Below are positions 25,181-61,520 of a DNA stretch of 64,000 nucleotides, piece by piece. The DNA is taken from assembly GCA_963662865.1 (NCBI GenBank), contig OY759969.1, positions 1,424,565-1,488,564 of the forward strand, given 5' to 3'. The DNA comes from Gammaproteobacteria bacterium (lineage in GTDB: Bacteria; Pseudomonadota; Gammaproteobacteria; JAJDYQ01). The notes under the pieces were generated by a model, which saw only the letters and a list, made by a program, of their open reading frames with translations, was not told the DNA's origin and made no database searches. How positions within the stretch are numbered: position 1 is the stretch's first letter; every line of letters begins with the position of its first letter. A program made the translations under genes and the position numbers.

Positions 25181-25267
25181 GCCCAGGTGGCGGAATTGGT
25201 AGACGCGCCAGCTTCAGGTGCTGGTCTACGTAAGTAGGTGGAGGTTCAAGTCCTCTCCTGGGCACCA
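25181..25267 (+). tRNA. tRNA-Leu (anticodon CAG), 87 nt including CCA
   Basis: Full cloverleaf: acceptor GCCCAGG/CCTGGGC, D-loop AATTGGTAG, anticodon stem CCAGC/GCTGG with loop TTCAGGT (CAG), long variable arm, T-arm GGAGG-TTCAAGT-CCTCC, and 3' CACCA. Confidence 0.85.
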
Positions 25268-25294
25268 TTTTGAAAAACGTCGAAAGACGACGAG

Positions 25295-25331
25295 AAACCG
25301 CTTAAGACTATGATTTTAAGCGGTTTTTTGC
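25295..25331 (+). terminator. Rho-independent terminator after tRNA-Leu
   Basis: AAACCGCTTAA...TTAAGCGGTTT hairpin followed by TTTT. Confidence 0.5.
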
Positions 25332-25724
25332 CTATTGTTTTGCATCGTAGCCCCTCATAGTTTCCGTTAGCCTCAAAAATGGAGCGCGTATGGAGCGTGA
25401 GTGGAGCGCGTTTTACCATCTACAACCACTCACATAACAGGCTATCTAACGCTCCACACTGATTTTAAGTATCCGACTGTATGGCCCCACTTAGGGGTTC
25501 CAGGTTGGGCAATGGAATACTGATTACCAAATAGCCTCACTCGATTATCTATCTTTCAGAGGCAGTTGAAGCATATGAGATGTCAGGGAAACGATGATTC
25601 CATTTTATCGATAAACTTCTGGACATTATTCACCTCCCAATTCCTAGCGATATAATAACCAGCACCATCGAAGCTAATTTCAGATTCTTTATTGAAGCGA
25701 TATTTAGAATACCTTTTCTCAGTT

Positions 25725-28700
25725 TCAGTCATCTAACCCAGATAATTTCTTCCACACTGTTTGGTAATCCCCCCCAGACATAGTTGCGGATTGTGGCTTC
25801 ATTCTCTCCCAGTCGGATGCCTGCAAAGACTTCAGATACTCATTAGCAGTAGCGGGAGTAAAATTATCTGAATGAACCCTCTTAAACTCGGCTCCAGTTG
25901 CTTCGGCAATACTTCGAGGAACAGAACTCATCCTCATTAATACTGCTTCTTCGGTTTTTACGCCGTGATAAATCATCGCTGGGAGATTGTTCAGGCTTCT
26001 TTTTTCCTCATCCGACATCTCTTCAAAATTAAGACCTGAAGTAGGCATTTTACTTAAAGCGGACAAACCCCAAGCGGCATTATTTGCGAGGTCTCGGTAT
26101 ACCGCTTTACATGCCTTTGAAATCCTGGTTGTAAAGTCACCACTGTCGAAAAATGAATCTGCAATATCAGCCAAACTCTTTCCAGATACCCACGCTTGAG
26201 TAATATCAGCTAGTTTTCGATAACCTACGCCATCTTTTGTTAATTCCTCTAAACTAGATTTGAGCTGAGGAATTTTCATCATGATTCCCATTAAGTCTGG
26301 TAAAGTTTTGCTATTACTATCACCAAACAGACTAGACGGCTCCCAGCTCTCAATTGACAAATTATTTTCTAATTGCCCCATTCCCAATAATGCAGAACGA
26401 ACCCCTTCAGGAGAAAAACCAGTTGCATCTGCTAGCGTTGCATTTTCAGGATACTCAGCTAAAACTTTTACATAACTTCGAGTGGCCTTTAAAAGTGCTT
26501 CGGCTTTTTGAAAAGATGAGTCGTCACTTTTTGCGCGCAGCGCACTAAATCCTAAAGTATTACGTAGCGTTTGCTCTGCCTCTCCGATAACAATATCTAA
26601 ATTGCGTTTTTCATTCCATAGGTGAGCGATATAACTACGAAAATCCACCCACTGATCTTCCTTTATTAACGTGGAAAGATTGTTTAACTCACCAGCCTTA
26701 TACAATTCATCAAGTAATGACTCCATTCTAGAAATTAACTCTTCAATCGCTTCATTAACATAGTCTCGCACTGCTTTTTGATCCTTACCTGCTGCAATAC
26801 CTACAACTCCAACACTATTTTGACCTATTCGTCCAGTGCGCCCAGCTAAATTCCAGAAAGCGCGGTGAGACATTTGGATACCGTAAGGGTATTTCGTGGT
26901 CGCCAAAAACACGGATGAAACTGGAAAGTTCAGACCTTGCGCAATCGTTGTAGTCGCGCACATCACACGTATATGGCCAGCTTCAGTTAGCCATTCTATT
27001 AAGGCTAAGACTTCTGCTGGCAGCCCCGCATGATGAACTACAACACCTTTGGACAGCATATTAATAAGTTCGAACTTCTCACTAACTTCTGTTGCCAAGA
27101 ATCGTTGAACAAGTGCCACTTCACTTGGTACTTGTTCAAAAGCCGGAAGCTCTGCGGCTACCTTTCTGGCGATACTCCATACATCAGGTATTGTTTGAGC
27201 AATTGCTATACTCGTGCCGCGATCCGAAAATGATTTCGCCATGGCGACAGCTTGTGCAGAGAGGCTTCCTTGAACCTTTGAGTAATTAAGCTTTTTGAGT
27301 GGTCTAACGCCGTTGATCTCATGTATCCCATGTAAATGAATAGTTCTTTGAGTTGTTGTCAGTGTTTCGAAATTAAGATGCCAGTCGCCTTGCCTTTCAC
27401 CTCTATCAGAATCAAAAGGTGTGACATTAAACATACCAACCAATCTCTCGTTAGGCTGCCATGCTGTGGTCCCCAGGCTTATTGTTCTGCCTCTATCAGC
27501 GGCTAACCACTGCGCCAAATCTTCTGTATTAGGAACAAAAGGCATCATTAACAGGAAATTTGCACTTGGAGATTCCTGTTTGATCGTTGCAAGAAGCAGC
27601 TCTATTCTTAGACCGCGCTCTTTATCCTCTATGTTATGGGCTTCATCCATGACGACTAATGCCAGAGGTCGAGCAATTTTCTTGTTGCGCATTACAAGTT
27701 GTAATTTTTCAGGAGTCGCGACCAATACTTGAAATGCTTGCCGTTCTCTCAAAAGAGTTTCCTCAAATGCATCAACCTCAATAGCTCCCGACAATTGTTC
27801 TACATGAATATTTAGAGGCTCAAAATCTGAACGCAGCCTTCTAGTGATCTGCGAAACCAGAGCGCGAGTAGGCGCAACATAGGCTACCCAGCCATTATCT
27901 TGATCAAACTGGTTCAGGGCTTGCAACATCCTAAATTGAGACAGCTGTGTTTTCCCACTGGATGTAGGCAGATCTACAACAACCGCTCTACTTGCCTGAT
28001 CTAGTAATCCTTGCTCCTGTAAAGCTGCTCTTTGCGGAGGAAAAAGCTCAAACATTCCTCGATGCTTTGTTACGTGATTAACAAATTTCTTCACTCTTGA
28101 ATTCACAGTATGAGCAACCCACCATAAAGAACCTTCAGCCATTTTCCGACTAGCTAAATGAAGCCAATTCAGTACCATTTCTAACTGTACATCACGGCTA
28201 CTTTTAGCAGCTTTTACTGCTGCCTCAAAATGTTGATCAAGTTCTGAATCAATGGCTGCTGGCTCACCTTGCAGCATATAAACAGCAAGTCTTTCAGTGG
28301 CTTTGGCAAAATGGTATAGGGCAATCAATTGTAAAGCGGTAGCTTTACCCGCTGCTCCAGACTGCTCTTCGACCAGGAGAGATTCAAAGCGGGATTGATC
28401 ATTACGTAAACCAAGAACTATTTCTGATACTTTGCCTAAATCATCCCAGTCACTCTTCCGAAGCAGTCGAATCCAGCAGTCAAACAGTCTGTACAGCAAT
28501 CGTTTATCCCATTGAACATCGTCCACAGGAGGAATTGCAATTGCTTTTGGGAAATCAGAAAACCAGCGTTTTAAATCCGTCCAGCGTTCACCACAATATG
28601 CTAGCCCTGCTAAATGAAGCACATTAAATATTCGATAATCTGTATCGGTTGGAATTGGCAGAACGCGATATAAACCAAATGCCCTATAAGCGCCAGCTTG

Positions 28701-28976
28701 AGCTTGGTTTTTTAGCTTGACATTCTCTTCGCCTGTTGACGAGCGCAATACTGCTGATAAACCCTCTATGGCGGCCATCTCATAGGCTGTTGCAACATTT
28801 TCTATCTCTTTATCTGTTACCTCTGACAGATAAGTATTGTGCAGAACCTGATCTAATGCTGCTCTAATCAATCGTTCATCCGCGGCTTCAAATACTCTGT
28901 CTTGTATTTCACTAGGTATAGCTTGTACAGCCCAGTGCTGATCTATATTTTTGAGATCATGCAAGGTAAGTGTCAT
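25725..28976 (-). CDS. Ski2/Hel308-like SF2 DEAD/DEAH-box helicase, 1083 aa (HamB-like candidate defense helicase)
   Basis: Walker A (VVVDLPTSSGKTQLS), DEAH (VVMDEAHNIED), and HHAGL...ATTTIAQGLNFP motif V/VI typical of Ski2/Hel308-type helicases. The helicase core is flanked by ~320-aa N-terminal and ~350-aa C-terminal regions of unknown function. Its start overlaps the stop of the upstream 277-aa gene by 4 nt. The region is AT-rich. Confidence 0.6.
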   Translation of the reverse strand: MTLTLHDLKNIDQHWAVQAIPSEIQDRVFEAADERLIRAALDQVLHNTYLSEVTDKEIENVATAYEMAAIEGLSAVLRSSTGEENVKLKNQAQAGAYRAFGLYRVLPIPTDTDYRIFNVLHLAGLAYCGERWTDLKRWFSDFPKAIAIPPVDDVQWDKRLLYRLFDCWIRLLRKSDWDDLGKVSEIVLGLRNDQSRFESLLVEEQSGAAGKATALQLIALYHFAKATERLAVYMLQGEPAAIDSELDQHFEAAVKAAKSSRDVQLEMVLNWLHLASRKMAEGSLWWVAHTVNSRVKKFVNHVTKHRGMFELFPPQRAALQEQGLLDQASRAVVVDLPTSSGKTQLSQFRMLQALNQFDQDNGWVAYVAPTRALVSQITRRLRSDFEPLNIHVEQLSGAIEVDAFEETLLRERQAFQVLVATPEKLQLVMRNKKIARPLALVVMDEAHNIEDKERGLRIELLLATIKQESPSANFLLMMPFVPNTEDLAQWLAADRGRTISLGTTAWQPNERLVGMFNVTPFDSDRGERQGDWHLNFETLTTTQRTIHLHGIHEINGVRPLKKLNYSKVQGSLSAQAVAMAKSFSDRGTSIAIAQTIPDVWSIARKVAAELPAFEQVPSEVALVQRFLATEVSEKFELINMLSKGVVVHHAGLPAEVLALIEWLTEAGHIRVMCATTTIAQGLNFPVSSVFLATTKYPYGIQMSHRAFWNLAGRTGRIGQNSVGVVGIAAGKDQKAVRDYVNEAIEELISRMESLLDELYKAGELNNLSTLIKEDQWVDFRSYIAHLWNEKRNLDIVIGEAEQTLRNTLGFSALRAKSDDSSFQKAEALLKATRSYVKVLAEYPENATLADATGFSPEGVRSALLGMGQLENNLSIESWEPSSLFGDSNSKTLPDLMGIMMKIPQLKSSLEELTKDGVGYRKLADITQAWVSGKSLADIADSFFDSGDFTTRISKACKAVYRDLANNAAWGLSALSKMPTSGLNFEEMSDEEKRSLNNLPAMIYHGVKTEEAVLMRMSSVPRSIAEATGAEFKRVHSDNFTPATANEYLKSLQASDWERMKPQSATMSGGDYQTVWKKLSGLDD

Positions 28977-29806
28977 TGCTCATCCCCACGCAAAGCCTCT
29001 TGTGCTTTGTCTTTCAATAGAGAAATAGCGTTCTCGGGAAAATATAACGCATAAAGCGAGATACTAGTTAAGTCAGGGCAACCATTCGCTAGAGATTTCG
29101 CACAACATGAAAGGTCTGATTCATTAGGTTCTATATCACGAATGAGAACTCCGAATATCGCAACATCTCTAAGCGCAGAGCTTAAATACCGCTTTGTAGC
29201 GCTTTTAAACATATACCACCATGATGCGTTTATGGCGTGATGCCCTAGGTACCGAATCAGGCTTTTCTTTGTCCGATGAGAGTCTCTCAACCCTTCAAGC
29301 TGGTTTTTTAACCCTGTTCGACTGTACATAACACGAGGCGGAGAATGTTCATCACTCGATGTTTTTACTTCACCAAAGGCAAATCTGTAGGGATTTTCAG
29401 TATCGTCTGTCTCTTGAAAGCCTGTCAAATCTGCCCCAGCAGGGCTAGCTTCTGGATTTTTCAGGTCTCTGCCCGTTGGCCAAGGAAAAGTACAATTATT
29501 ATGATCGGCTACATAAGCTTCGGCTAGGGCTTCACCTACCAGCCAATTTTTGGGTTCTTGCTCTGCCTGCAACAGCTGACTGATTTGTGCTGGTTCAAAT
29601 TCAGTGGGGGCCAGACCAGCAAGCATGTCATTTAGTTCAGCAGTTCCTGTAGTATCAAGCAGCAAATCTTTAACGGCGCCATTGATTGCCCCATCTAGCT
29701 GCTCTTCATTATAGGCCAGCCCTCGTGCAATGACGGGCGTGCTGTCCACACTATAACTAGGCGTTGCTTCAGGTATGAGCATGTGAATAAGTCCTTTTAG
29801 TTTCAA
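28973..29806 (-). CDS. Hypothetical 277-aa protein translationally coupled to the downstream helicase (HamA/DUF1837-like candidate; possible PD-(D/E)xK fold)
   Basis: No catalytic motif can be assigned with certainty. A candidate acidic-x-Lys element (DD...FAFGEVKTS) could be a PD-(D/E)xK core. Gene size and order (small protein then large helicase, overlapping) match Hachiman HamA-HamB. Confidence 0.35.
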   Translation of the reverse strand: MKLKGLIHMLIPEATPSYSVDSTPVIARGLAYNEEQLDGAINGAVKDLLLDTTGTAELNDMLAGLAPTEFEPAQISQLLQAEQEPKNWLVGEALAEAYVADHNNCTFPWPTGRDLKNPEASPAGADLTGFQETDDTENPYRFAFGEVKTSSDEHSPPRVMYSRTGLKNQLEGLRDSHRTKKSLIRYLGHHAINASWWYMFKSATKRYLSSALRDVAIFGVLIRDIEPNESDLSCCAKSLANGCPDLTSISLYALYFPENAISLLKDKAQEALRGDEQ

Positions 29807-29835: not shown

Positions 29836-31053
29836 TCAAGCTATTCCTTGAGCCAATACAGCTTTTTTATGGTCATATACATGATCAGTTATACTGCCAT
29901 CTTTAATCTTTTCCACCACCTCATCAATAATAAAGAGCGGCACTAAAAACCATTCTTTGGGTGAAACAGGATTTCCGAATCTATCATCAATGGTTATATC
30001 TAGCTTTGCATTTTCAAAGAACCTGTGAAGAAGATTTTCCAGCTTTACTCGATTTATATTGAATAACTCGTAGGTTGCGACCACCTCTACATCAGCCATC
30101 AAAAACGTAGGATCAACCTTTGCATTTGCAATACGCTTTTCAACTTCTCCACCCGTTACACCAATTTTATGAATAACATCCCGACTTTTGTTCACAACCG
30201 GATGGTCTAGTTTGCTCCTCAGAACATAGATTGTTCCGCTCTCAGCGTCATCTTCACCAATTACATCATCGAATAATGACCCCGCTGAAAGAGAAACAAT
30301 TCTACGGCCAGCCTCATCTTCGTAGAGCGCCTTTTGAAGCGAGCGTAAAAGTAAATCACTTTCTGTACGGTTGTCATAAATTACGCGCAGCCTGTAGTCA
30401 TTCTTATCAAAGCCGTGATTTCGCTCTTTACTGAATTCAGCGACATATGCCTTTTGCCCATTGACTATAAACCAATCACCTTGCTCGATTTTCGCCATGT
30501 AATCACGATCTTTTTGATCTTTAAGCAACTGAGCTTCCACAAGCCCATGCTTTAAATCACTTTGAACCTTATCGAATAACGGTTTGAACTTGTCAAAGTC
30601 TTCGCAAGGAGTACGGTTTGCTATTTCTTCTGCCGCTTTTTTGTCTGCTTGAGACTTCACATGTTTCAGGTAAGTGATATCACCTTCTTTAGGTGCTTCG
30701 ACACCTAGCTCTGCCAATAACTCTTCATCTGTATTGTATTCGGCAGGCGGCTCAGCTACTAGCAAACCTCCAGCTAAAAGCCCTTGATGGTCAGTTTCTT
30801 CAACAAGATTTCGACACCCTTCCTTCTTTCGAATCTGATCAAGCCTTGTGGCGTACAAGCGTTCAAAGATATCTTTGTTCTCACCATGCTCTGGAGCATG
30901 CCCATGTTCTTCTACGAACCGCTGTATTTCCTCAAACCCTGCAATAATTCGCTCTTCTTTTGGTGTTCTGGCCGTTTTTTTCTCTTGCTTGATTTCTACA
31001 CCAAGCTCAGCCAACAGCTCTTTCTTGGTTTTACTTTGCTTTGCCTCAGCCAT
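29836..31053 (-). CDS. T5orf172 (GIY-YIG-like) domain protein, 405 aa (YeeC-like)
   Basis: The C-terminal domain carries the T5orf172 signature: TIYVLRS...IHKIGVTGGEVEKRI...LENLLHRFF...SPKEWFLV. The N-terminal half has two copies of an (E/K)ELLAELGVE-containing helical repeat. Its start overlaps the upstream helicase stop by 8 nt. Confidence 0.7.
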   Translation of the reverse strand: MAEAKQSKTKKELLAELGVEIKQEKKTARTPKEERIIAGFEEIQRFVEEHGHAPEHGENKDIFERLYATRLDQIRKKEGCRNLVEETDHQGLLAGGLLVAEPPAEYNTDEELLAELGVEAPKEGDITYLKHVKSQADKKAAEEIANRTPCEDFDKFKPLFDKVQSDLKHGLVEAQLLKDQKDRDYMAKIEQGDWFIVNGQKAYVAEFSKERNHGFDKNDYRLRVIYDNRTESDLLLRSLQKALYEDEAGRRIVSLSAGSLFDDVIGEDDAESGTIYVLRSKLDHPVVNKSRDVIHKIGVTGGEVEKRIANAKVDPTFLMADVEVVATYELFNINRVKLENLLHRFFENAKLDITIDDRFGNPVSPKEWFLVPLFIIDEVVEKIKDGSITDHVYDHKKAVLAQGIA

Positions 31054-33097
31054 TACTTTCCTCCATCACTTTACGTTGAAGGAAGGCAATACCTTCTGCC
31101 ATACGCTTTTCCCAAGGATCAGCTGCGGTGATCTCCGGTAAGCGCCCACGCTCCTTTTTGAACTTCAAAGCTCGTTCTGCAAGCTCCCGTGCCTCTTCTT
31201 CGGTAAGATTGATTTTTTTTGCTGCAATAACAGCAGCCACCTGCTTTAAGCTATCTTCAGTCATTGCTTTAGCGAGAATTGCATAGGCCTCGCTGAATGG
31301 ATTGATTCGGTCAATTAAATCAATGTCCAGATCAGTCACATTCATAGCATATTTTCTTACGCCGTCGATAAAGGCAGTACTGCCCCCACGCTCAATATCA
31401 TCATCTTGGCTAGCAATTTCTTTGGCTTTTTGAGTAAGGTTAAGCGCAGCAACAGCATGCTGCCTTACAGCCTCCTGATCTTCCGCATCTAGTTCTGGGT
31501 ATTTATCTTTAACGATTTTCCCCATACGTAACTGCGTTAATTCTTCAGGCACCATCTCTTCGTCAAACAGGCCTCGCTCAAGAGCGTTTTTGTCTTGAAC
31601 GAAAGCGGTAATTACTTCGTTCAAATCTTCCTGACAGATTCGCTGTGCATCTTTGCTTTTAGGCTCGAACAAGCCATTTATCTCTATCTGGAACTGCCCT
31701 GTAGAGGGGTTAAATCCCACATTATTGCCATTCGGATCATAACCATTCTCACCGTAGTCAAAGCCTTCTGCGGGGGTTCCTTGGCTATTTTTGGGTGTGA
31801 AGTTAAATTTAGGCGCTAACACCTGTTCCATAAGGAGGCTGGCAGCAATCGCTTTTAAAGTATCGTTAACTGCATCAGTGACAGCTTCCTCTGAAGCATC
31901 TGGCTCTGCAATCAAGTTAGTAAATCGAGAATGGGTTTTACCTTCAGCATCACGGGTTGCTCGACCGATAATCTGTATAATTTCAGTAAGGCTAGAGCGG
32001 TAGCCAACGGTTAGGGCATGCTCGCACCAAATCCAGTCAAAGCCTTCCTTCGCCATACCTAGCGCGATAATAATGTCGACATGATCTCGATTGCTTTTGG
32101 CTTCAGGAAGTTTTAACGAAGCGGAAACCTGATCACGCTTTGATGAATCATCAACCAAATCCGCTATCTTGAGTATTTTGCCACTTGTTGTTTTTACTAA
32201 TTGGAATCCAGTATCTAAATCTACACCCTGCCACTCGCCAAGCTCATCAATAATATGCTCAACTTCCGTGTTTTTACCACGCTTGGTGCTCTCACGAGAA
32301 TTCACATTGGGGATATGAATGATGGTTTTTTCGTTCGGGTCTAATACGTTCAAAATATCATCTGCGTATGAGTCGGAATAAAAGTAATACCCAATATCCA
32401 AGGTTTTTAGATATTCATAACCGTTAAGCTGTTCGTAGTAGGTATACGTGACCGTATCAAAGTTAGCTTCATCCTGTGGCGAAAGAACAGCTTTTGCATC
32501 ACCTCTAAAATATGAACCTGTCATTGCGACGAGATGTACTTTGTCACGGGCGATAAATTGCCCTAAATGAGCGCCGAGCTTATTGTCTGGGTTAGCGCTA
32601 ACATGGTGAAACTCATCTACGGCGATCAGGCAATCATCAAAGGCAGGCACGCCCAGGCGATCTACCGCAAAACGAAAGGTCGCATGGGTGCAAACCAATA
32701 TTTGATCATCCCCATCAAGAAAGACTTTTACTGAGTTGACTTTACCGCCACCTTCTCCGGGGGAATTACACAAATTCCATTTCGGCTCGACACTCCAATC
32801 CCAGTAGAACCCAAAGTCCGAAAGCGGCTCATTGTTAAAGCTGGCACCAATGGATTTTTCAGGAACTACGATAATGGCTTTTTTAACGCCTTGATTATTG
32901 AGCTTATCTAAAGCCACAAACATCAAAGCACGGCTCTTACCAGAAGCAGGGGGAGACTTGATAAGTAGATATTGCTCACCACGCTTTTCGTAAACGCGCT
33001 CTTGCATCACCAGCATACCTAGTTCATTGGGTTTTTTAGAACTCCCATTGCTGGCATAATTAACAGATACTGAGGGTATAGATTTATGTTCCGTCAT
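31046..33097 (-). CDS. SF2 DEAD/DEAH helicase, type III restriction Res-like (YeeB-like), 683 aa
   Basis: Walker A (SPPASGKS), DEFH (AVDEFHHV), QIIGRATR motif VI, plus a ~230-aa C-terminal extension. It lies between the methyltransferase and the T5orf172 gene with short gaps or overlaps. Confidence 0.75.
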   Translation of the reverse strand: MTEHKSIPSVSVNYASNGSSKKPNELGMLVMQERVYEKRGEQYLLIKSPPASGKSRALMFVALDKLNNQGVKKAIIVVPEKSIGASFNNEPLSDFGFYWDWSVEPKWNLCNSPGEGGGKVNSVKVFLDGDDQILVCTHATFRFAVDRLGVPAFDDCLIAVDEFHHVSANPDNKLGAHLGQFIARDKVHLVAMTGSYFRGDAKAVLSPQDEANFDTVTYTYYEQLNGYEYLKTLDIGYYFYSDSYADDILNVLDPNEKTIIHIPNVNSRESTKRGKNTEVEHIIDELGEWQGVDLDTGFQLVKTTSGKILKIADLVDDSSKRDQVSASLKLPEAKSNRDHVDIIIALGMAKEGFDWIWCEHALTVGYRSSLTEIIQIIGRATRDAEGKTHSRFTNLIAEPDASEEAVTDAVNDTLKAIAASLLMEQVLAPKFNFTPKNSQGTPAEGFDYGENGYDPNGNNVGFNPSTGQFQIEINGLFEPKSKDAQRICQEDLNEVITAFVQDKNALERGLFDEEMVPEELTQLRMGKIVKDKYPELDAEDQEAVRQHAVAALNLTQKAKEIASQDDDIERGGSTAFIDGVRKYAMNVTDLDIDLIDRINPFSEAYAILAKAMTEDSLKQVAAVIAAKKINLTEEEARELAERALKFKKERGRLPEITAADPWEKRMAEGIAFLQRKVMEESNG

Positions 33098-33099
33098 GC

Positions 33100-35874
33100 T
33101 CAGGATACCTTTTTCTTAGAGTTGGAAGTGGATTTGGTCATTTTTGTATAGAGATCAAAAAGCTTTTCAAGGCGCTCAGTGTCATTCTTAAAACGACGAC
33201 CGATGTAAATGCGCTCTAGTACTTCATCATTACGCTCATGTGCCCTACGTAAATCGTCGAGCATTTTTTCAGGGTCATAAAGATCAGCAATTGTTGCAGG
33301 AAAATGAGCTTCGCGGGCTAAAAGAATATCTTCAGCAGATTTCGTTAAGTCTTCTTTATTTTTTACAGTCAGCTTAGGAACAGGAAAAGTGTTCCAGCCG
33401 AGGGTATTGGAATAGTTAAAACGCATTTCCAATCGCCCGCAGACCGTACCAATCCATACCCAATGAACACGTGAGGTAATAAGTGAAAAATTCCATAAAG
33501 GCGCGTCATACATCGCAAAGTTACGGTTACCAACTATTGAATCACCTTCGATATAACCTACTGGCAAAAAATTTCTGTTTTCTGAGCTAACACAAGGAAC
33601 AACTATGACACTAGAGCATTTCTGATATCGGATTTCACCGAATTTATGAGGTGTACTTGCGACTGCGACTGTTTGAGATTTGGAACTTGTAGACCGCATA
33701 TTTTTAACAATTTCAAATCTATCTTCTATTGACTTTAGACGTCTCGCTTCTGCGACATTCTGATCATCGACCCATAAGCAATATCGTTGCTTTCCGTTTA
33801 TAAGCTCCTCTGAACCGATAAATTTGCGAATAAATTTACATACAGCTTCTCGCGACTCACGCTCTATTAAGCTTACGTCCGAACTATCCAGCAACAACCC
33901 CCCACCATCAGTAGGCTTGCTTCCCCAAACCATAGCCCCCCTATCATCTCCAGCCTTCAATACTGGATAAACAATTATATTAGGTGCTGCTATCAAATAA
34001 GCATTTATGTTATTTACCTTCTTTTCTATGGACTCACCATCGTCGGAGATTGAAAATAGGCGTCGCGCCTTACCAGCTTTATTTGATATCCCGACGATCA
34101 CAACGGTAATGCCTGCATTGTGACTAGCCAAATTAGCCCACTTGAAAGAAGTATGTGCAAAAGATATCTCATACCCTGACGAAAAAATCAAAGGCCACAA
34201 TATGAATACTTGCTCTCCTTGGTTTATTGAATTTGTCGATACGAACGCTGATACGGCATCTGTTTTTGTTCCGAAGTCTGCTGCTTTCATGAACCAACCA
34301 GCTACATAATCTAATGACTTCCATTTTTTTGTACGGTGAGAGAAGATATCTTTCAAATCAGATTTTTGCTCTTTGGATTGCCGAGCTTTACCGATATATG
34401 GTGGATTACCACAAATATAAGTTTCGCTTCCTTCATTTTCGAAGTCGATTTCAGCTTGGTCTAGCGGAGAACTGAATAGGTCATCAGCTTGAAGCTTAAC
34501 GCCTAGCCCAGTAGGGGGACATATACTGAACCAATTAAGCCGAAGTGCATTACCGCAAATAATCCAATTCTTTGCATCGAGGGGCAGGAATTCTACTAAC
34601 GCCTCTTTCTGCCCCAGATAGAGAACATCGCATTGGTATTCGGCAATAATTAGAGCGAGACGCGCAATTTCTGCCGGAAAGTCTCGGAGCTCTATACCGC
34701 GATAGTTGGTCAATGGAATATCTGACTTCCTACCAGATTCACCTCTACGTTTATTTATCTCGGCTTCAATGGCTCGCATTTCTTTGTAAGAAATAACGAG
34801 GAAATTTCCCGATCCGCAGGCAGGATCAAAAACTCGGATTTTCGCCATGCGTTTGCGAAGATTGAGCAGCTTTTGAGGACTATCACCAGCCTCTTCAAGC
34901 CTTGCTCTGAGGTCATCCAGAAAGAGTGGATTTAAGACTTTGAGAATGTTTGGAACGGATGTGTAATGAAGCCCTAGCGCGCCACGCTCTTCTTCGTCAG
35001 TTACGGCTTGGATCATTGAGCCAAAGATATCTGGATTGATTTTCGTCCAGTTCAAATTCCCGATATGAATAAGATAAGACCGAGCAATCTTACTAAAGCT
35101 CGGCACATCAGTATTGCCAGAAAATAGGTCACCATTCACGTAGGGGAAGGTATCAGCCCATCCAGGTAACTTAGCGCTTGCTCTTTTTTCAATGGCGGTA
35201 TCCATTGCACGGAATATTTCACTCATAACTTCATGAGTATTTGAGGAGTCCCGCACACTCATTTGCTCAATGGTTTTGGTGAAGAGCCCTTCACCATTGA
35301 AGATATCGGTATCTTCTGCAAAGAAACAGAAAATCAGGCGCGCCATAAAGTGATTCATATCATGACGGCGCTCTGCTGTACCCCAATCAGGGTTATTTCT
35401 TAGCAGCTCAACATAGAGTTTGTTTAAGCGGCTGGTGGCGCGAATATCAAAGGAACTTTCACGGATTTGTTTAACCGTGCTTATACCAGCCAACGGCAGG
35501 AAAAAACCAAAGTGATTAGGGAAGTCACTATAGTCACAGGCAACTGTTTCGCCTGAAGCAATCTCTTCAGCTTCAAAATTTACGCCGTCTGTTGCCAGAA
35601 TGAATTGGGCTTTAGCCTTGGTAGTCGCAGAGCTATCCTTGAGTCTATTTAGGGTGGCAGAAACCTCACCCTCTTCGCACGCTAGAATATGAATATTGCT
35701 GCGCTGTAAAACCCCACCATCAATATCGGAAGCATTAGTGGAGTCACTCTTCAGGCGCTTAATAGTGGTCGCCTTGTTGCCGAATGCTTCCAAGAAGGCA
35801 TAGGGGAAGCTAGCCGCATCAAAAGCTTGCTTGGCTAAATTACTTATCGCTTCTTCTATCTCAACAGCGTTCAA
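33100..35874 (-). CDS. Gamma-class N6-adenine DNA methyltransferase of the MmeI/PglX-like (type IIG/IIL-like) family, 924 aa (YeeA-like)
   Basis: SAM motif I (FDPACGSGNFLV) and catalytic motif IV (YICGNPPYIGK). Family-typical blocks are LIFCFFAEDT, FPYVNGDLF, FVSTNSINQGEQV, KPTDGG, CLWVDD, SSENRNFLPVGY, GRLEMRFNYS, NTFP, LYDP..M..L..AHE..D. A C-terminal TRD-like region is present. The N-terminal ~150 aa lack a clear D-x-ExK nuclease motif. Confidence 0.8.
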   Translation of the reverse strand: MNAVEIEEAISNLAKQAFDAASFPYAFLEAFGNKATTIKRLKSDSTNASDIDGGVLQRSNIHILACEEGEVSATLNRLKDSSATTKAKAQFILATDGVNFEAEEIASGETVACDYSDFPNHFGFFLPLAGISTVKQIRESSFDIRATSRLNKLYVELLRNNPDWGTAERRHDMNHFMARLIFCFFAEDTDIFNGEGLFTKTIEQMSVRDSSNTHEVMSEIFRAMDTAIEKRASAKLPGWADTFPYVNGDLFSGNTDVPSFSKIARSYLIHIGNLNWTKINPDIFGSMIQAVTDEEERGALGLHYTSVPNILKVLNPLFLDDLRARLEEAGDSPQKLLNLRKRMAKIRVFDPACGSGNFLVISYKEMRAIEAEINKRRGESGRKSDIPLTNYRGIELRDFPAEIARLALIIAEYQCDVLYLGQKEALVEFLPLDAKNWIICGNALRLNWFSICPPTGLGVKLQADDLFSSPLDQAEIDFENEGSETYICGNPPYIGKARQSKEQKSDLKDIFSHRTKKWKSLDYVAGWFMKAADFGTKTDAVSAFVSTNSINQGEQVFILWPLIFSSGYEISFAHTSFKWANLASHNAGITVVIVGISNKAGKARRLFSISDDGESIEKKVNNINAYLIAAPNIIVYPVLKAGDDRGAMVWGSKPTDGGGLLLDSSDVSLIERESREAVCKFIRKFIGSEELINGKQRYCLWVDDQNVAEARRLKSIEDRFEIVKNMRSTSSKSQTVAVASTPHKFGEIRYQKCSSVIVVPCVSSENRNFLPVGYIEGDSIVGNRNFAMYDAPLWNFSLITSRVHWVWIGTVCGRLEMRFNYSNTLGWNTFPVPKLTVKNKEDLTKSAEDILLAREAHFPATIADLYDPEKMLDDLRRAHERNDEVLERIYIGRRFKNDTERLEKLFDLYTKMTKSTSNSKKKVS

Positions 35875-35880
35875 CGAAAA

Positions 35881-36183
35881 TCACCCTTTCTGCCCATTCT
35901 TACCACTACCCGTCTTCTGACTGTTTATCCAACTCTGGACATCTTCTCGCCTGAAACGCCAGCTACCACCCACCTTAGAACCGGGCAATTTACCTTCAGC
36001 AGCAAGGCGATAAGCCGTTTTTTCAGCTAATTTAAGATATTCTGCAACCTCTTTTTTGACCAGACCAACATCATAACAGCGATTTAGCGCCAGATTGACC
36101 TGGGATTTACTGATTCCTGTCTCCTGCTCCAGGGGCTGGGCGGTATAGCGCGAGGATTCCGCTTCCTCCTTTTGCAGGGCCAC
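35881..36183 (-). CDS. Excisionase/AlpA-type helix-turn-helix protein, 100 aa (candidate regulator of the downstream module)
   Basis: C-terminal motif LPGSKVGGSWRFRREDVQSWI is typical of the excisionase-family HTH. It ends 6 nt before the methyltransferase start. Its start overlaps the toxin stop. Confidence 0.5.
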   Translation of the reverse strand: MALQKEEAESSRYTAQPLEQETGISKSQVNLALNRCYDVGLVKKEVAEYLKLAEKTAYRLAAEGKLPGSKVGGSWRFRREDVQSWINSQKTGSGKNGQKG

Positions 36184-36437
36184 TAGTTAGTGACCAGAAT
36201 AATCTTCCCGTCTTGCATCTCCAGCTCCAGCACAATCCGATAACTCATATTGATCGAAACTGACGATAGATCCTTCAGGCGACCTTCCAGGCTGTGCAGC
36301 CTTAATAAGGGGTGGTAAGGGTCTAACTCCAGCAGTTCGAGTGTTTTCCTGTATTGGTTGTGTATCTCTGGATGCTTCCGCAAGAATTTCTTGGCGCGCC
36401 TGATATAGCTATACGGGTATATCAGTGTGTATGGCAT
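36183..36437 (-). CDS. Type II toxin, RelE/ParE superfamily
   Basis: 84 aa. HSLEGRLKDLSSVSINMSYRIVLEL...IILV matches the RelE/ParE core (H.L.G.L...S..I...YRI). Its start overlaps the upstream antitoxin stop by 1 nt. Confidence 0.6.
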   Translation of the reverse strand: MPYTLIYPYSYIRRAKKFLRKHPEIHNQYRKTLELLELDPYHPLLRLHSLEGRLKDLSSVSINMSYRIVLELEMQDGKIILVTN

Positions 36438-36688
36438 CAGCCCAGTACTCGCTTCATATGCTCATCTACGCTTCCGGTTTTGTAGTTACCGTTGGCTATA
36501 TCGCTACGGGCTTCCTGGAGAGCGATATCCAGCTCGTATTCGCGCAGTTTGTTGTAGGTATTGAAGTCGAGAACAACGTACTTACGTTCGCCGCGCACAG
36601 TAATGACGGCTTCCTCGTCCTGCTGGAGGGCGGATTCGACAACGGATACGCCTTTGGTCTTGAGATCGCTGGCGGTGATGCTGGTCAT
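36437..36688 (-). CDS. Type II antitoxin, Phd/YefM family
   Basis: 83 aa. The N-terminus (MTSITASDLKTK...VITVRGERKYVVLDFNTYNKL) is the Phd/YefM fold. It sits immediately upstream of the RelE/ParE gene. Confidence 0.6.
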   Translation of the reverse strand: MTSITASDLKTKGVSVVESALQQDEEAVITVRGERKYVVLDFNTYNKLREYELDIALQEARSDIANGNYKTGSVDEHMKRVLG

Positions 36689-37312: not shown

Positions 37313-40300
37313 TCAATGCACCGCTCCCGACTGAGCTGCCCACTTACTGTTATTAATAGCCAGATCAAGCGTCAGCTCGAATAGCGCGTCTCGCTTTTCC
37401 TTGAATAGCTCTTTGTCATAGCTATCCTCCGGAAGATGCTCATCGAGGACCTTGCCAACCCGATCTCTCACACGTAGACGGGTGTCACTGGTCTTATACC
37501 AATCCTGCACCAACACCTTCGGTTTCTCCTCGGTCAGGCGCTTCAGTAAAGCCTTGGCGGCCAGGCGAAGTGTTTGCTCCTCGGCCTTGGTCATCTTGTC
37601 TTTGCGGAGCAGGTCATAGATCTCGAGCTCATCTTCGGTGAGCCCTTCCCGGATGTGCCGCTCGTTTTCTTCTTTCAGGTCCTGCGCGAATTTCACCAGC
37701 TCGGCGAAGGCGGCATCGGCTGAGGTGCTGCCGGCGTTGTAGTTGTCGATGATGTCTTGCAGGCGTTCGGCAAAATCGCGGCGGGTGCGGTTCTGGTTGA
37801 GCATGTCATTAAGTTTTTTCTCAAGAAAGGCCCGGAGGTCGGCAATCTCAATGTTCTTGTAGCTAGCCTGTTTGAAGTCTTTTTTGAGCTTATCGAAATC
37901 GACTTTACTGAGATCCCAGCCCTGCCCCTTCTGCTCAATTTTGTAACCGACCTTGCCCTCTTTAACGCCCTTGAAGTCCGCATCATCAACAATCACGCTT
38001 TCATCTAGCAGTTCGTTGATCTGCTTGACGGCTGAGTCGATGTCCTGCTGCTCGATGATGCTGTCGACCACGCCGCACAGATACTGGAATACGACTACTT
38101 TACGGACCACCGGCTGGCCGAGTACCTCGGGCTTACTGGCCTCGTAGAGCGCTGAGATGGTGTTCTGATAAACCTTGAAAGACTTACGCCACTCATCTTT
38201 AGTCAACAGCTGATCAGCCCAGGTTTTGAACAGCCCTACTTTGGTGAAGATGTCACCGGTTGCCAACGCTTCATCAATATCGATGTCCCGCTCGGCACAA
38301 AAGACCGTGCCCTGTTCAATCGCTTCGTCGAGTAAGCGAAACAGTTCGTCTTTATCTTTCACCGGCGGATCGTCGGTACCTGCATCGCCCTGGCCGTAGT
38401 CCTTGATGGCCTTTTTCAGCCGCCCGATGACGCCGTAGTAGTCAACGATCTCGCCGTTCTTTTTCTCAACACCGTTAATTCGGTAGGAACACACACGGTT
38501 GGCTCGGGCGATGGTCTGCATCAGCGTGTGGTCTTTCTGCGGCTTGTCGAGGTACAGCGTTGACACGGTCGGTGCATCGAACCCGGTCAGCCACATGGCA
38601 CAGACAAACACGAGCTGCAGCGGGTGCTCGGGGTCTTTGAAGTTGTACTCGAGATCATGGCCGTGCTCATCGACGTGTTCCATGCGCTTGCGGTGCGGTC
38701 GCATGTCGAGGTCCTGCTCGTCGAACTTCTCTTCTTCGCCGTTCTCGGCACTGACGACTACGGCCATTTCGACCTTGCGCATATAGTCGATCGTCTTCTT
38801 GAGCCGGGCTTTATGAACTTCATCCTGTGACGTCTTAAGCTCGCCGCGCAGCTTCTTAATCTCCTGCTTCCATCGCAGCTTTACTTTGTCGTGCATCTTC
38901 ACCGCCGTGAACTTGTCCACGGCGATCACCATGCCTTTACCCAAATAACCCCGGCGCGGGAAGTGAAAGACGATGTCATCGGCGATGGTGTCCAGGCGGT
39001 CATCCCGCTTGATCACCTCGAGCTCGCTGGCGAACTTGCGCTCCAGCTTCTCCTGCTGGGCGTCATCGAGGTTCTCGTCCTCGAGAATCTCGCAGAACTC
39101 CTCGCTCAGGTCTTCGTTCTGGTTCAGCACCTTGGGCACACGCTTCTTATAAAAGAGTGGCACGGTGGTGCCGTCGTCCATCGACTGGCTGAAGTTGTAC
39201 TCAGAGACGTATTCGCCAAACCATTCGTTGGTCTTGCGGTCGCGGCCCAGCAATGGTGTACCGGTAAAGGCCAAATACTGGGCCTTGGGCAGAGCCGCCC
39301 GCAGGTTCTCGGCCAGTGACTTGTATTGGGTGCGATGGGCCTCGTCGACAATGACGATGATGTCGTCGCGATTGGACAGCAACGGATAGTCCTGACCTTT
39401 CGGCCAGCGAAATTTCTGAATCAGCGTAAACACCAGCCGCTTGTTCTGCCCGAGGAAGGTACGCATCTGCTCGCTGTCCTTCGGCTGTGCGGCATCGGAC
39501 TTTTTGACGGTGTTGGTGTTGAGGAAATTGCGGTAGATCTGACCGTCGAGATCGTCCCGATCGGTAATTACTACGAAACTGTAGTTACCCTGGCATTTGC
39601 GGAAGATCTTCCGCGCATAGAAAATCATCGAGAAACTTTTACCCGAGCCCTGGGTGTGCCAGAACACACCGAGCTTGCCGCCGAATTCCTCGCGGCGCAG
39701 GAATTTGTCGAAGCCCTTGTTCACACCGATGAACTGATGGTTCTGGGCGATGATCTTCTGCGTCTCTTTGTGATAGATGACGAAGTTCTCGATGTAGTCG
39801 AGCAGCTTGTCATGCGGACACAGGCCGGCGAGAAAACGCTCCGCGCTGGTGCCGTTCTCGCTGATCTGCTCGCGCTTGATCTTTTCCTTCTCGTCGTCGG
39901 GGCGGAGCCAGTGGAAGAAATGCTCCCACTCGGCCGTCAGGCTGCCGACGCGCGTTTCGATACCATTGGAGAACACACACAGCGCGTTGGCGAGGAACAG
40001 CTGCGGGATATCGGCCTTGTAGTTGGTCAGGTTGTCGTCGTAAGCCGAGCGCAGTTTGATGTTGGAGTTTTTCAGCTCGATGAACACCAGCGGCAGTCCG
40101 TTGATGTAGAGCAGAATATCCGGGCGCCGATAGCTCGCCTTGGCCGCCGCACTCGTGCTCTGAATCCACAACTGAGTGACGGCTAGAAACTGGTTGTGCG
40201 GTGAGGCGGGGTCATTGAAATCGATGACCTTGACTCGTTCCTTGCGGTTTCGGCCTTGCTCATCTTTGAACTCGACCCGCACGCCGTCGCGAATCTGGCC

Positions 40301-40588
40301 GTCCACCTCGCGATTGGCGGCAATCATGGACATCGCCTGACGCTTGTCGCACAGCTGTTTGAGTGCATCATCAATCGCGGATTCGGGGATGCCAGGATTC
40401 AACGCGATGGCCGCAGCCTTTAAGCGGTCGTGCAGGATGACATCGCGTTTGTCCTTGCGCCCGGACTTATCGTTGTTCAAGTCGGCGGGATCAGAAGTGA
40501 AGCAATTCAGCGTGTCGTAGCCATAATCATCACGCAGGCGTTGCAACATCGCCTGTTCGATATCGTCTTCCGATATGAAGTTAGGCAT
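37313..40588 (-). CDS. hsdR: Type I restriction enzyme R subunit HsdR
   Basis: 1091 aa. N-terminus MPNFISEDDIEQAMLQRL is typical of HsdR. It has a PD-(D/E)xK nuclease region, SF2 translocase motifs (TQGSGKS, DEAH-like VDEAHRTQ) and a C-terminal helical domain. Confidence 0.9.
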   Translation of the reverse strand: MPNFISEDDIEQAMLQRLRDDYGYDTLNCFTSDPADLNNDKSGRKDKRDVILHDRLKAAAIALNPGIPESAIDDALKQLCDKRQAMSMIAANREVDGQIRDGVRVEFKDEQGRNRKERVKVIDFNDPASPHNQFLAVTQLWIQSTSAAAKASYRRPDILLYINGLPLVFIELKNSNIKLRSAYDDNLTNYKADIPQLFLANALCVFSNGIETRVGSLTAEWEHFFHWLRPDDEKEKIKREQISENGTSAERFLAGLCPHDKLLDYIENFVIYHKETQKIIAQNHQFIGVNKGFDKFLRREEFGGKLGVFWHTQGSGKSFSMIFYARKIFRKCQGNYSFVVITDRDDLDGQIYRNFLNTNTVKKSDAAQPKDSEQMRTFLGQNKRLVFTLIQKFRWPKGQDYPLLSNRDDIIVIVDEAHRTQYKSLAENLRAALPKAQYLAFTGTPLLGRDRKTNEWFGEYVSEYNFSQSMDDGTTVPLFYKKRVPKVLNQNEDLSEEFCEILEDENLDDAQQEKLERKFASELEVIKRDDRLDTIADDIVFHFPRRGYLGKGMVIAVDKFTAVKMHDKVKLRWKQEIKKLRGELKTSQDEVHKARLKKTIDYMRKVEMAVVVSAENGEEEKFDEQDLDMRPHRKRMEHVDEHGHDLEYNFKDPEHPLQLVFVCAMWLTGFDAPTVSTLYLDKPQKDHTLMQTIARANRVCSYRINGVEKKNGEIVDYYGVIGRLKKAIKDYGQGDAGTDDPPVKDKDELFRLLDEAIEQGTVFCAERDIDIDEALATGDIFTKVGLFKTWADQLLTKDEWRKSFKVYQNTISALYEASKPEVLGQPVVRKVVVFQYLCGVVDSIIEQQDIDSAVKQINELLDESVIVDDADFKGVKEGKVGYKIEQKGQGWDLSKVDFDKLKKDFKQASYKNIEIADLRAFLEKKLNDMLNQNRTRRDFAERLQDIIDNYNAGSTSADAAFAELVKFAQDLKEENERHIREGLTEDELEIYDLLRKDKMTKAEEQTLRLAAKALLKRLTEEKPKVLVQDWYKTSDTRLRVRDRVGKVLDEHLPEDSYDKELFKEKRDALFELTLDLAINNSKWAAQSGAVH

Positions 40589-41921
40589 GGGCGGCCTCGG
40601 GTTCAGTGGTCTCTTCCTGCATGCTCGGCGGGAACTGTATGTCGAGGTCTTCCACCGAGAGCTTGCCGGAGATCAGGCGTGGGAGGAGAAGATCACGGGT
40701 TTGTGTTGCAACAGTATTTTCAAGTCCAATCTGATCTTTAAGATCCAGTATTGGCTTCACAGCATCTTCAAATTGCTGCTGAAGAGTAGCGGGAGGAGTC
40801 AACATCTTATGGTGTTTGAGAAAACTCTCAAACTGATAATTACTGATCCCTGTGGATTGAACTTGAAATATCCCGACGAGCCCTTGCTCATAAAACAACT
40901 TCAGATACTGCTGCATCAGATACGGCGAAACCTTTTGACGGTCGAATCGAATCAACTTACAGAAACTGGCTGGAATCACCGTTTCCGGAAGGGAGCTCAA
41001 AAGCGAACTAGATACTCGAACGTTTCGTCCAAGCAACTGATTCTTGCTACCACCAGATACTTCGAACACAAAATCATCTGGCTGCATGATGCGGGACTTG
41101 AGATTTGACGCCGTATGAAAACGAAACGGCATTGAAGACAAGTCCGCTCGCTGGACCTTTGGAATGTCTGTTCCGCGAATCACAAATGCCGACTCGCTGT
41201 ACCCAGATGTCTGATCCTCTTCACCCCAGCCCCCTCCAATGTAGTGCTCGATGAGGGCTCCCATGCTCTTCGGTTCCCAACCTTCAGGCACACCTTTGAC
41301 GAACTTGGCGGCTTGGTGGCCAGGGAAGCGCATGCGGACGAACCATTCGCGGTAGAGCTCCTCGGCCATCTTTTCGAGCAGGGCGATGCGGCGTTTGTTG
41401 GTCTCGATCAGGTCGTCATACGCCGACAGAATTGCAGCGATTCGTCGCTTCGCCTCTGGGCTGGGCGCTATTACCGGAACCTTACGTAAATCCGTTAACC
41501 CAACGAACTGCTGGCTGGTCCCAGTAAGGAAGGTGTCAAGAGCCGCCTGACCAATGGAGCTTGTAAGATAGTAGTATAACCACATACCGTCATCTCGGCT
41601 GCGGCTTTTGAATAACCCAATATTTTTGATCGCGAAATTAGGTCTATCTCGGACAAGCGCCATCTGACCGACGGTTCCGATCATTGAGAACAAGACATCC
41701 CATTGATCCACTTTGCTACGTTTATTAACCGCATCAAAATCAGCAGTGCTGATGTTGTAGGCGCCATCAAGTTTGATCTGACCTTCTTTTAAATTCTTGG
41801 ATGTAATGAGGGGATACCCATCATCTGCAGGCTTTGGCGTGTCGTGAGTCCCGTCCGCCACACGAAGACAAAAGTCGGACGACTTTTCCACAGTCCACCC
41901 AGCTGGAAGTACAGCTTTCAT
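40581..41921 (-). CDS. hsdS: Type I restriction-modification specificity subunit HsdS (two target-recognition domains)
   Basis: 446 aa. Its stop and start overlap hsdR and hsdM. It has conserved central and C-terminal coiled-coil spacer motifs (LPRLISGKLSV). Confidence 0.8.
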   Translation of the reverse strand: MKAVLPAGWTVEKSSDFCLRVADGTHDTPKPADDGYPLITSKNLKEGQIKLDGAYNISTADFDAVNKRSKVDQWDVLFSMIGTVGQMALVRDRPNFAIKNIGLFKSRSRDDGMWLYYYLTSSIGQAALDTFLTGTSQQFVGLTDLRKVPVIAPSPEAKRRIAAILSAYDDLIETNKRRIALLEKMAEELYREWFVRMRFPGHQAAKFVKGVPEGWEPKSMGALIEHYIGGGWGEEDQTSGYSESAFVIRGTDIPKVQRADLSSMPFRFHTASNLKSRIMQPDDFVFEVSGGSKNQLLGRNVRVSSSLLSSLPETVIPASFCKLIRFDRQKVSPYLMQQYLKLFYEQGLVGIFQVQSTGISNYQFESFLKHHKMLTPPATLQQQFEDAVKPILDLKDQIGLENTVATQTRDLLLPRLISGKLSVEDLDIQFPPSMQEETTEPEAAHA

Positions 41922-61029: not shown

Positions 61030-61052
61030 TAAACCCCTTAATTTTGTAGAGA

Positions 61053-61080
61053 AGGGGGGGGGGGGGGGGGGGGGGGGGGG
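61053..61080. repeat. 28-nt homopolymeric G (plus) / C (coding strand) tract 23 nt upstream of the autotransporter start codon
   Basis: Direct count in the sequence: G x28 at 61053-61080. On the coding strand this is C28-TTCTCTACAAAATTAAGGGGTTT-ATGATG, with AAGGGG as the likely SD. Confidence 0.9.
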
Positions 61081-61520
61081 TATTAAATTGTGTATGTCGC
61101 CTGTAGCGCGTTTCAGGGGCATTGTGACCACGTTTATCTCCTGTGTCTTGACGGTGTGCAACCGGCCTTGTGGGCCGCATTTATTTCCAATCTGTTTCAA
61201 CTTGCTCTACTCCGGGTTCTGTATACCGATGTTGTCTCTGTTCAGGCCCGGCCTGCGGGCCGGTTCCGAATTCAGGCCCGGATTTATGCCGGCAATTTGA
61301 GCTACTTTAGACCCATTCTTGACGAATTACAACCCCTTTTTTCTGATTTGGTTGCTGACTGAGATAAAATCAGCGGTCTGCACCGCAGCGGCAAATCCGG
61401 CGACATATTAATGGGACCGGTGGAGCGAATATATCTGGCCTGACAAAATCGGCGATGCCACGAATAGTTTTTCATTGTATTAACCGTCGCTTGTCTCTGG
61501 CTGGCCGATGCCTCTTTGTT

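Follow-up and report, generated by a model that had tools for sequence, protein, structure and literature searches.

What do two overlapping genes, one for a small protein and one for a large helicase, encode at the edge of a gammaproteobacterial defence island, and can they be tied to a defence system of known mechanism? We examined such a pair in a stretch of 64,000 nucleotides (nt) of contig OY759969.1 (assembly GCA_963662865.1, positions 1,424,565 to 1,488,564), the whole of which is called the window below. An earlier note, made from the window's letters without database searches, had proposed that the pair is a candidate defence system of two genes, either Hachiman-like (HamA/HamB) or related. 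Our analysis supports that proposal and favours a divergent Hachiman over a distinct system: we put at roughly 80% the probability that the two genes form an anti-phage module of Hachiman type (HamAB-like) that has diverged strongly, known here from its sequence and from structural models. Three things missing from the note are that the genes lie on the minus strand, that they close a longer defence array on that strand at its 3′ end, and that PADLOC already lists them, as PDC-M23.

The 4-nt overlap between the stop codon of the small open reading frame (ORF) and the start of the helicase gene, reported in the note, was confirmed as an ATGA (Table 1), which suggests, from its sequence, translational coupling of the two genes. 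For the small gene, the coordinates of the frame given earlier stand, and the length does not. The frame reaches a TTG at 29806, giving 277 amino acids (aa; 28973–29806), but translation more likely begins with the ATG at 29782, for a product of 269 aa, because a Shine–Dalgarno-like AAAGGA lies 9 nt upstream of this ATG, because the PADLOC profile alignment begins only at residue 9 of the 277-aa ORF, and because an identical 269-aa protein (P0001) is present in a public database.

Searches with PADLOC, a check that the note had proposed, returned full-length matches for both proteins, so that adjacent genes match both PDC-M23 profiles. The small protein matched PDC-M23A (PDLC04529; E = 6.8e-104; residues 9–272 on profile positions 1–261 of 265) and the helicase matched PDC-M23B (PDLC04531; 1486 bits; residues 12–1080 on positions 3–1059 of 1060).

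The small protein carries an apparently intact nuclease active site. Its FAFGEVKTS segment, taken in the note for a ‘weak’ PD-(D/E)xK element, turned out to be strongly conserved: G83, E84, G116, D118, E138 and K140 are invariant across the window family (66 sequences), and a diverse HamA alignment (15 sequences) has G80, E84, G116, D118, E137 and K139 as its invariant positions. Profile-to-profile alignment of the two families with hhalign (E = 6.9e-5, 166 columns) superposed VGEALAE on LGEIYAT, AGADLTGF on RGDDVIGM and FGEVKTS on KTEAKSR (window family named before HamA in each case). With D118, E138 and K140 found in all 66 sequences, the D–E(x)K catalytic motif of HamA is present in the family, and in HamA of E. 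coli ECOR31 the E138A/K140A mutant loses defence (PMC12278908).

An AlphaFold2 model of the small protein, built with the 66 homologues (pLDDT 88.1, pTM 0.87), has a predicted nuclease-like fold, the lack of which the note had set down as grounds for dropping its proposal. The model combines a predicted PD-(D/E)xK core with insertions of the kind that contact HamB: a helix–loop–helix (26–55), a loop (96–117) and helices (158–201) lie at the same positions as the three HamB-contact regions of HamA (30–63, 102–117 and 159–199). The sequence of loop 96–117 is almost invariant, yet its pLDDT is low, which would fit an interface element that becomes ordered only on binding. These features are best explained by homology of the 269-aa protein to HamA, as a PD-(D/E)xK DNase with a predicted specificity for DNA rather than RNA. 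Some relatives are longer: in homologue P0263 (684 aa; family match 422–679) an N-terminal region of about 420 aa without a Pfam match could reflect either a fusion of domains or an error in gene calling, and P0256, P0286, P0307 and P0323 have N-terminal extensions of 70–100 aa.

For the helicase, comparison with HamB profiles, also proposed in the note, was positive: more than 20 PADLOC HamB profiles matched (best E = 7.9e-65), one of which (PDLC00194) spans residues 227–1022, and weaker PADLOC matches were to SngC and BrxH. With phmmer, SLH1, ASCC3 and Brr2 ranked on top, followed by HamB (8VX9_B, E = 6.3e-23) and Hel308. The Walker A, DEAH, HHAGL and ATTT motifs described earlier were all found in the translation (HHAGL at 648–652, ATTT at 674–677), together with GRTGR at 712–716. 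Among 45 helicase homologues the invariant positions include H648-H-A-G, T677..G681-x-N683 and G712-R-x-G-R716, as well as those given for the Walker A and DEAH motifs in Table 1; the protein is thus a Ski2-like helicase of superfamily 2 (SF2) in which the ATPase and helicase motifs are intact. Mutation of HamB at the site corresponding to the DEAH box (D431A) abolishes defence (PMC12278908). The AlphaFold2 model of the helicase was of moderate confidence (pLDDT 74.7) and predicts an all-alpha region (1–282), a RecA1/RecA2 core and an all-alpha C-terminal region (751–1079). HamB was its best structural match, aligning over 857 residues, where Hel308-like helicases reach about 530.

The two genes were adjacent wherever this could be tested. 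A scan of one genome per species gave 139 loci encoding a relative of the small protein, of which 80 were kept; on two of these the contig stops just after the small gene, leaving 78 in which pairing could be tested. A full-length helicase gene followed the small gene directly in all 78, overlapping it in 72 and by exactly 4 nt in 65. That a helicase adjoins the small gene in every testable locus, mostly with the same overlap, argues that the pairing is not due to chance, and a tight two-gene operon is also the arrangement of Hachiman. Divergence from the window proteins is correlated between the two subunits (Pearson 0.90, Spearman 0.71, n = 73), the sole and indirect pointer to a putative 1:1 complex of the two.

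Hosts of the pair include Gammaproteobacteria, Alpha- and Deltaproteobacteria, Planctomycetota, Verrucomicrobiota, Cyanobacteria, Spirochaetota, Chlorobi and Firmicutes, and, among archaea, ANME-1, Methanosarcinales and Methanomicrobiales. Carriers of PDC-M23 include Vibrio cholerae, V. parahaemolyticus, E. coli, Salmonella and Enterobacter, as well as numerous environmental bacteria and archaea. The system is rare and its distribution patchy: it is present in 5 of 5,426 complete E. coli genomes, where RefSeq labels the products ‘hypothetical protein’ and ‘DEAD/DEAH box helicase’. The island that holds the pair in E. coli PK-F-10132 is bounded by an integrase, lies between yicC and dinD and also carries AbiE and a type I restriction–modification (R–M) system; around the window pair are R–M, GmrSD and toxin–antitoxin genes. 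The pair is an obligate, mobile unit whose distribution, in defence contexts, is accessory or horizontally spread.

Set beside type I Hachiman (HamA/HamB of ECOR31, 8VX9 and 8VXY, and the B. cereus original), the window locus has the same gene order, a nuclease of about 260–270 aa followed by a Ski2-like helicase of 1000–1200 aa with overlapping stop and start codons. It also shares the E / D / ExK catalytic residues at near-identical positions, the intact ATPase motifs, a predicted all-alpha N-terminal helicase domain and the location in a defence island. Differences are that ECOR31 HamB exceeds the window helicase by about 90 aa in length, and that PDC-M23 forms a compact family of its own that is often found inside R–M operons or appended to them. 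Membership of AbpAB (Hachiman type II; 8ZUE) was considered and rejected. AbpA consists of an N-terminal Cap4-like nuclease and an inactive HamA-like domain (PMC12278908), whereas the 269-aa window protein has no extra domain and has its catalytic residues intact; without a Cap4-like fusion and with an intact active site, the pair is not AbpAB.

Within PADLOC, the window locus is simply a member of PDC-M23. The PDC systems were identified by ‘guilt-by-embedding’, in a screen of loci for BREX, DISARM and type I R–M (Payne et al., bioRxiv 10.1101/2024.01.29.577857), and embedding in R–M loci is a criterion that defines them. PDC-M23 corresponds there to cassette CAS_00096 (count 161), which was kept after cassettes resembling known systems had been removed; its Hachiman ancestry thus went unrecognised in that screen. 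PDC-M23 is therefore already catalogued as a computational candidate, and we came across no earlier statement tying it to Hachiman. Published experiments on other PDCs did not include PDC-M23 among the systems tested. Linking this uncharacterised candidate to a defence system of known mechanism gives it a testable mechanism and specific point mutants.

If the pair works as E. coli HamAB does, coupled production of both proteins would yield a 1:1 complex, in which the N-terminal helical bundle of the helicase would keep the nuclease inactive while the complex surveys DNA. Phage infection would produce free 3′ single-stranded DNA (ssDNA) ends or DNA damage; these would enter the helicase, and ATP hydrolysis and ratcheting would then release or activate the nuclease, which would degrade DNA indiscriminately and bring about abortive infection. 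This follows the HamAB model of PMC12278908 and PMC11914072, and we infer complex formation, trigger, substrate specificity and outcome from it. On this view the pair probably acts as a DNase that causes abortive infection and is held under the control of a helicase sensing damage. In a second characterised Hachiman, HamB reportedly activates HamA rather than releasing it, and cleavage has a loose 5′-CNNNG-3′ preference (PMC13064477); since that system reportedly behaves somewhat differently, mechanistic details may also differ in the PDC-M23 lineage.

Several observations weigh against a Hachiman assignment, and some of them would favour a distinct helicase–nuclease defence system that has only its ancestry in common with Hachiman and works differently, for example by sensing a specific phage protein or an RNA, or with a targeted nuclease and no abortive infection. 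Comparison of the small protein with the DUF1837/HamA profile, which the note had named as a test, gave no similarity at the level of sequence profiles: PADLOC HamA profiles did not match it, and PF08878 (PF08878.16, DUF1837) matched neither the window protein nor any of 66 homologues, even at E ≤ 1. The DUF1837/PF08878 signature of HamA is thus lacking with the profiles used, which do recognise control HamAs from an E. coli IncHI1B plasmid and a B. cereus plasmid (PF08878 and PADLOC HamA1). Pfam and NCBIfam scans returned nothing for the small protein, searches of PDB sequences with the single sequence and with the family profile gave only noise (for example, a PRELI domain at E = 0.07), and Foldseek did not retrieve HamA. 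The hhalign probability of the HamA match was just 63%, the small protein shares about 9% identity with HamA, and the helicase C-terminus is predicted to be all-helical, without the OB-like barrel of ECOR31 HamB. Complex formation and DNA specificity are predictions by analogy, and a search of one literature library found no paper mentioning PDC-M23 and no experiment on it. The small-protein family is also separate and compact (a profile search against 1.84 billion representatives stayed within the family, which numbered 581 clusters at 50% identity, with no visible bridge to DUF1837 among the best 150 matches listed), and mechanisms already vary within Hachiman, as reported in PMC13064477. 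On the other side, one homologue carries a precomputed PF08878.17 match and a 57%-identical homologue is named ‘Anti-bacteriophage protein A/HamA C-terminal domain-containing protein’ in UniRef, from which we conclude that the newest profile builds are starting to reach the PDC-M23A family. We consider a distinct system very unlikely: positions are equivalent for the catalytic residues, for the HamB-contact regions and for the predicted N-terminal helical bundle, and the simplest reading of this is conserved regulatory logic. Still less probable, to the point of being hardly credible, is that the pair has no role in immunity and combines a repair nuclease with a Hel308-, Lhr- or Ski2-class helicase serving housekeeping or DNA repair. 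In both its sequence and its fold, the helicase core does resemble Hel308, Hjm and the helicase domain of POLQ (a RecA1/RecA2/ratchet core and motifs that Lhr also shares), and Hachiman itself responds to DNA damage (PMC12278908). Those helicases, however, lack the predicted N-terminal helical bundle of about 280 aa and a coupled nuclease gene, and the scores of the window helicase against NCBIfam Hel308 equivalogs (115–134 bits) are so far under the cut-offs (887–1216; 115 bits against 1200 in the case of Hel308) that it is not a Hel308. Nor is the pair a core gene set: its rarity in E. coli, there within an integrase-bounded island, its patchy distribution across two domains of life, its low G+C content (GC) relative to the flanks and its consistent company of defence genes all run counter to housekeeping, which the note had listed as a reason to abandon its proposal.

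Embedding in R–M operons raises the further question of whether the pair is autonomous. It could be an accessory or effector module that depends on an adjacent R–M system (in the window the MmeI-family, helicase and T5orf172 genes, elsewhere type I), either by processing DNA ends made by restriction or as a PrrC-like back-up upon R–M inhibition. The window pair lies on the same strand as its upstream genes and 53 nt downstream of them, without a recognisable promoter of its own. In roughly 35 of the 78 loci, the pair has type I hsd genes on its own strand, no more than about 7 kb away, in at least four arrangements (A denoting the small gene and B the helicase gene): HTH–hsdR–hsdM–hsdS–A–B, with a leading helix-turn-helix (HTH) gene, in an enterobacterial, Vibrio and Marinobacter-type clade; an hsdM–hsdS–A–B–hsdR sandwich in at least nine loci, in several of which hsdR begins 15–120 nt past the helicase stop; HTH–hsdM–hsdS–hsdR–A–B (L002); and A–B–hsdR–hsdM–hsdS (L076). 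The pair is placed between hsdS and hsdR in L021, L036, L045, L047, L052, L054, L059, L064 and L065 (also L070, L071 and L078), and stands at the tail of a MAD1-HTH-led hsdR–hsdM–hsdS operon in L003–L018 and L081; in E. coli, hsdS and gene A overlap, stop codon with start. The same hsdS–hsdR insertion point or operon tail is used by PrrC in EcoprrI and by DarTG2 in the EPEC RRDM island, and an HTH gene heads the operon in many loci, as it does there; the proteins themselves are unrelated to the window pair. That PDC-M23 was itself discovered through embedding in R–M, BREX or DISARM loci fits such a dependence too. We nevertheless judge the dependence unlikely. No Pfam family is common to the three ORFs nearest upstream in the remaining loci (about 43 of 78), where neighbours include housekeeping genes, and the pair therefore also stands alone; the R–M partner varies (MmeI-like, or either of two unrelated type I lineages), which disfavours a specific protein–protein dependency; the exact window arrangement recurs only in L001; and canonical Hachiman is a stand-alone two-gene system (PMC12278908). 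A related idea, which we regard as doubtful, is that PDC-M23 is a Hachiman lineage functionally wired to R–M systems. The helicase might be activated by DNA ends or ssDNA produced by a partner restriction enzyme (‘restrict, then self-destruct’), or the pair might fire, as PrrC does, when phage anti-restriction proteins block the R–M enzyme. If so, R–M embedding would represent mechanistic coupling of innate restriction with abortive infection, beyond co-regulation. We found no literature on Hachiman combined with type I R–M embedding, and the recurrent association offers a tractable case for asking whether embedded modules cooperate with their host R–M systems.

Returning to the divergent Hachiman in the window, the features of the pair and of its surroundings are collected in Table 1.

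Table 1. Positions in the window of the gene pair, its predicted functional elements and neighbouring features.
Feature	Position	Strand	Remarks
HamB-like Ski2-type SF2 helicase gene (PDC-M23B)	25725–28976	minus	1083 aa
DEAH box, D444-E-A-H447	27636–27647	minus	Counterpart of the HamB DEGH/D431 site; D444, E445 and A446 invariant in 45 homologues
Walker A, P337-T-S-S-G-K-T343	27948–27968	minus	From the translation; PTSxGKT invariant in 45 homologues
All-alpha N-terminal domain of the helicase (aa 1–282), predicted	28131–28976	minus	Candidate equivalent of the HamA-binding NAH bundle of HamB
ATGA stop/start overlap	28973–28976	minus	Helicase ATG 28976–28974, small-gene TGA 28975–28973; 4 nt
HamA-like PD-(D/E)xK nuclease gene (PDC-M23A)	28973–29782	minus	269 aa from ATG at 29782
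Predicted catalytic core of the nuclease	29363–29431	minus	D118 29429–29431, E138-V-K140 29363–29371; invariant, aligned by hhalign to HamA D118 and E137-x-K139
Shine–Dalgarno-like AAAGGA	29792–29797	minus	9 nt upstream of ATG 29782; read from the sequence
Same-strand upstream context, outside the pair	29836–36183	minus	Pfam and PADLOC matches
T5orf172/MUG113 protein	29836–31053	minus	405 aa; no PADLOC or NCBIfam match
DEAD/ResIII helicase	31046–33097	minus	683 aa; no PADLOC or NCBIfam match
MmeI-family methyltransferase/restriction endonuclease-like protein	33100–35874	minus	924 aa; all five MmeI domains
HTH_17 (MAD1-like) regulator	35881–36183	minus	Heads the array
Small toxin-like ORF	36183–36437	minus	84 aa; no Pfam match
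Phd/YefM antitoxin	36437–36688	minus	83 aa; Pfam E = 2.4e-8
Complete type I R–M system	37313–44002	minus	hsdM 41918–44002, hsdS 40581–41921, hsdR 37313–40588
GmrSD-family (DUF262/DUF1524) enzyme	44038–45876	minus	Next to the type I R–M system
tRNA-Leu(CAG)	25181–25267	plus	ARAGORN; 457 nt from helicase stop

The pair is the last element of the same-strand array. A scan for sigma-70-like promoters gave no candidate in the gap that precedes the pair, from which read-through transcription appears likely; region-wide counts were below shuffle expectation. The pair is probably co-transcribed as the tail of an HTH-led array that carries an MmeI-family R–M-like module. We rejected a reading of all six genes of the array as a single conserved system: the set of HTH_17, MmeI, DEAD helicase and T5orf172 genes recurs only in the closest relative (L001, a Cellvibrionaceae metagenome-assembled genome), and since the MmeI, helicase and T5orf172 genes accompany the pair nowhere else, they form a separate module. 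In its own right, the HTH_17–MmeI–DEAD helicase–T5orf172 set might represent a variant type IIL/IIG R–M system, made up of several genes and so far uncharacterised.

Upstream, a toxin–antitoxin-like pair adjoins the HTH gene; the antitoxin stop overlaps the start of the toxin-like ORF, whose TAG in turn overlaps the GTG of the HTH gene by 1 nt. The leading HTH was also considered as an RptR-type repressor with TAGCTA operators, and this was rejected: the only upstream TAGCTA lies inside the small toxin-like ORF, and the motif occurs 7 times across the window against 7.4 expected by chance. In this respect, and in being HTH_17/MAD1-like, the window HTH differs from the PrrC and DarTG2 loci.

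The region from about 25.7 to 45.9 kb is a defence island of at least five systems next to a tRNA-Leu gene. The AT-rich setting described in the note holds, with a GC of 0.41–0.45 over 26–36 kb against about 0.47–0.56 on the flanks. A terminator scan found a strong hairpin (25291–25330) after the tRNA-Leu. No second copy of the tRNA-Leu 3′ end, as an att-type direct repeat, and no integrase were found in the window. In the spacer between the tRNA-Leu and the helicase stop there are three close direct copies of TGGAGCG at 25380–25415 (tggagcgcgtatggagcgtgagtggagcgcg), which might serve as a protein-binding site or be left over from an integration.

Beyond PDC-M23, small proteins encoded upstream of HamB/PDC-M23B-like helicases on Rhizobium etli plasmid pRetMIM1e (L084:2266–3120) and on a Streptomyces plasmid (L086:1915–2685) had no PADLOC match. 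The Streptomyces protein aligns with the G-x-x-G-E, G-x-D and E-x-K motifs of HamA, and the R. etli pair adjoins ThiF- and MPN-family genes. This suggests that both are partners in further Hachiman lineages missed by current profiles. Because HamA/DUF1837 profiles miss whole lineages, the prevalence of Hachiman is probably underestimated.

Elsewhere in the window, a 3379-aa ORF on the minus strand (51041–61180) encodes repetitive Thr/Ala/Gly/Asp-rich modules and an autotransporter-like C-terminus. Its GC is 0.63–0.66 against 0.45–0.53 on either side, with sharp jumps at about 51.0 and 61.0 kb.

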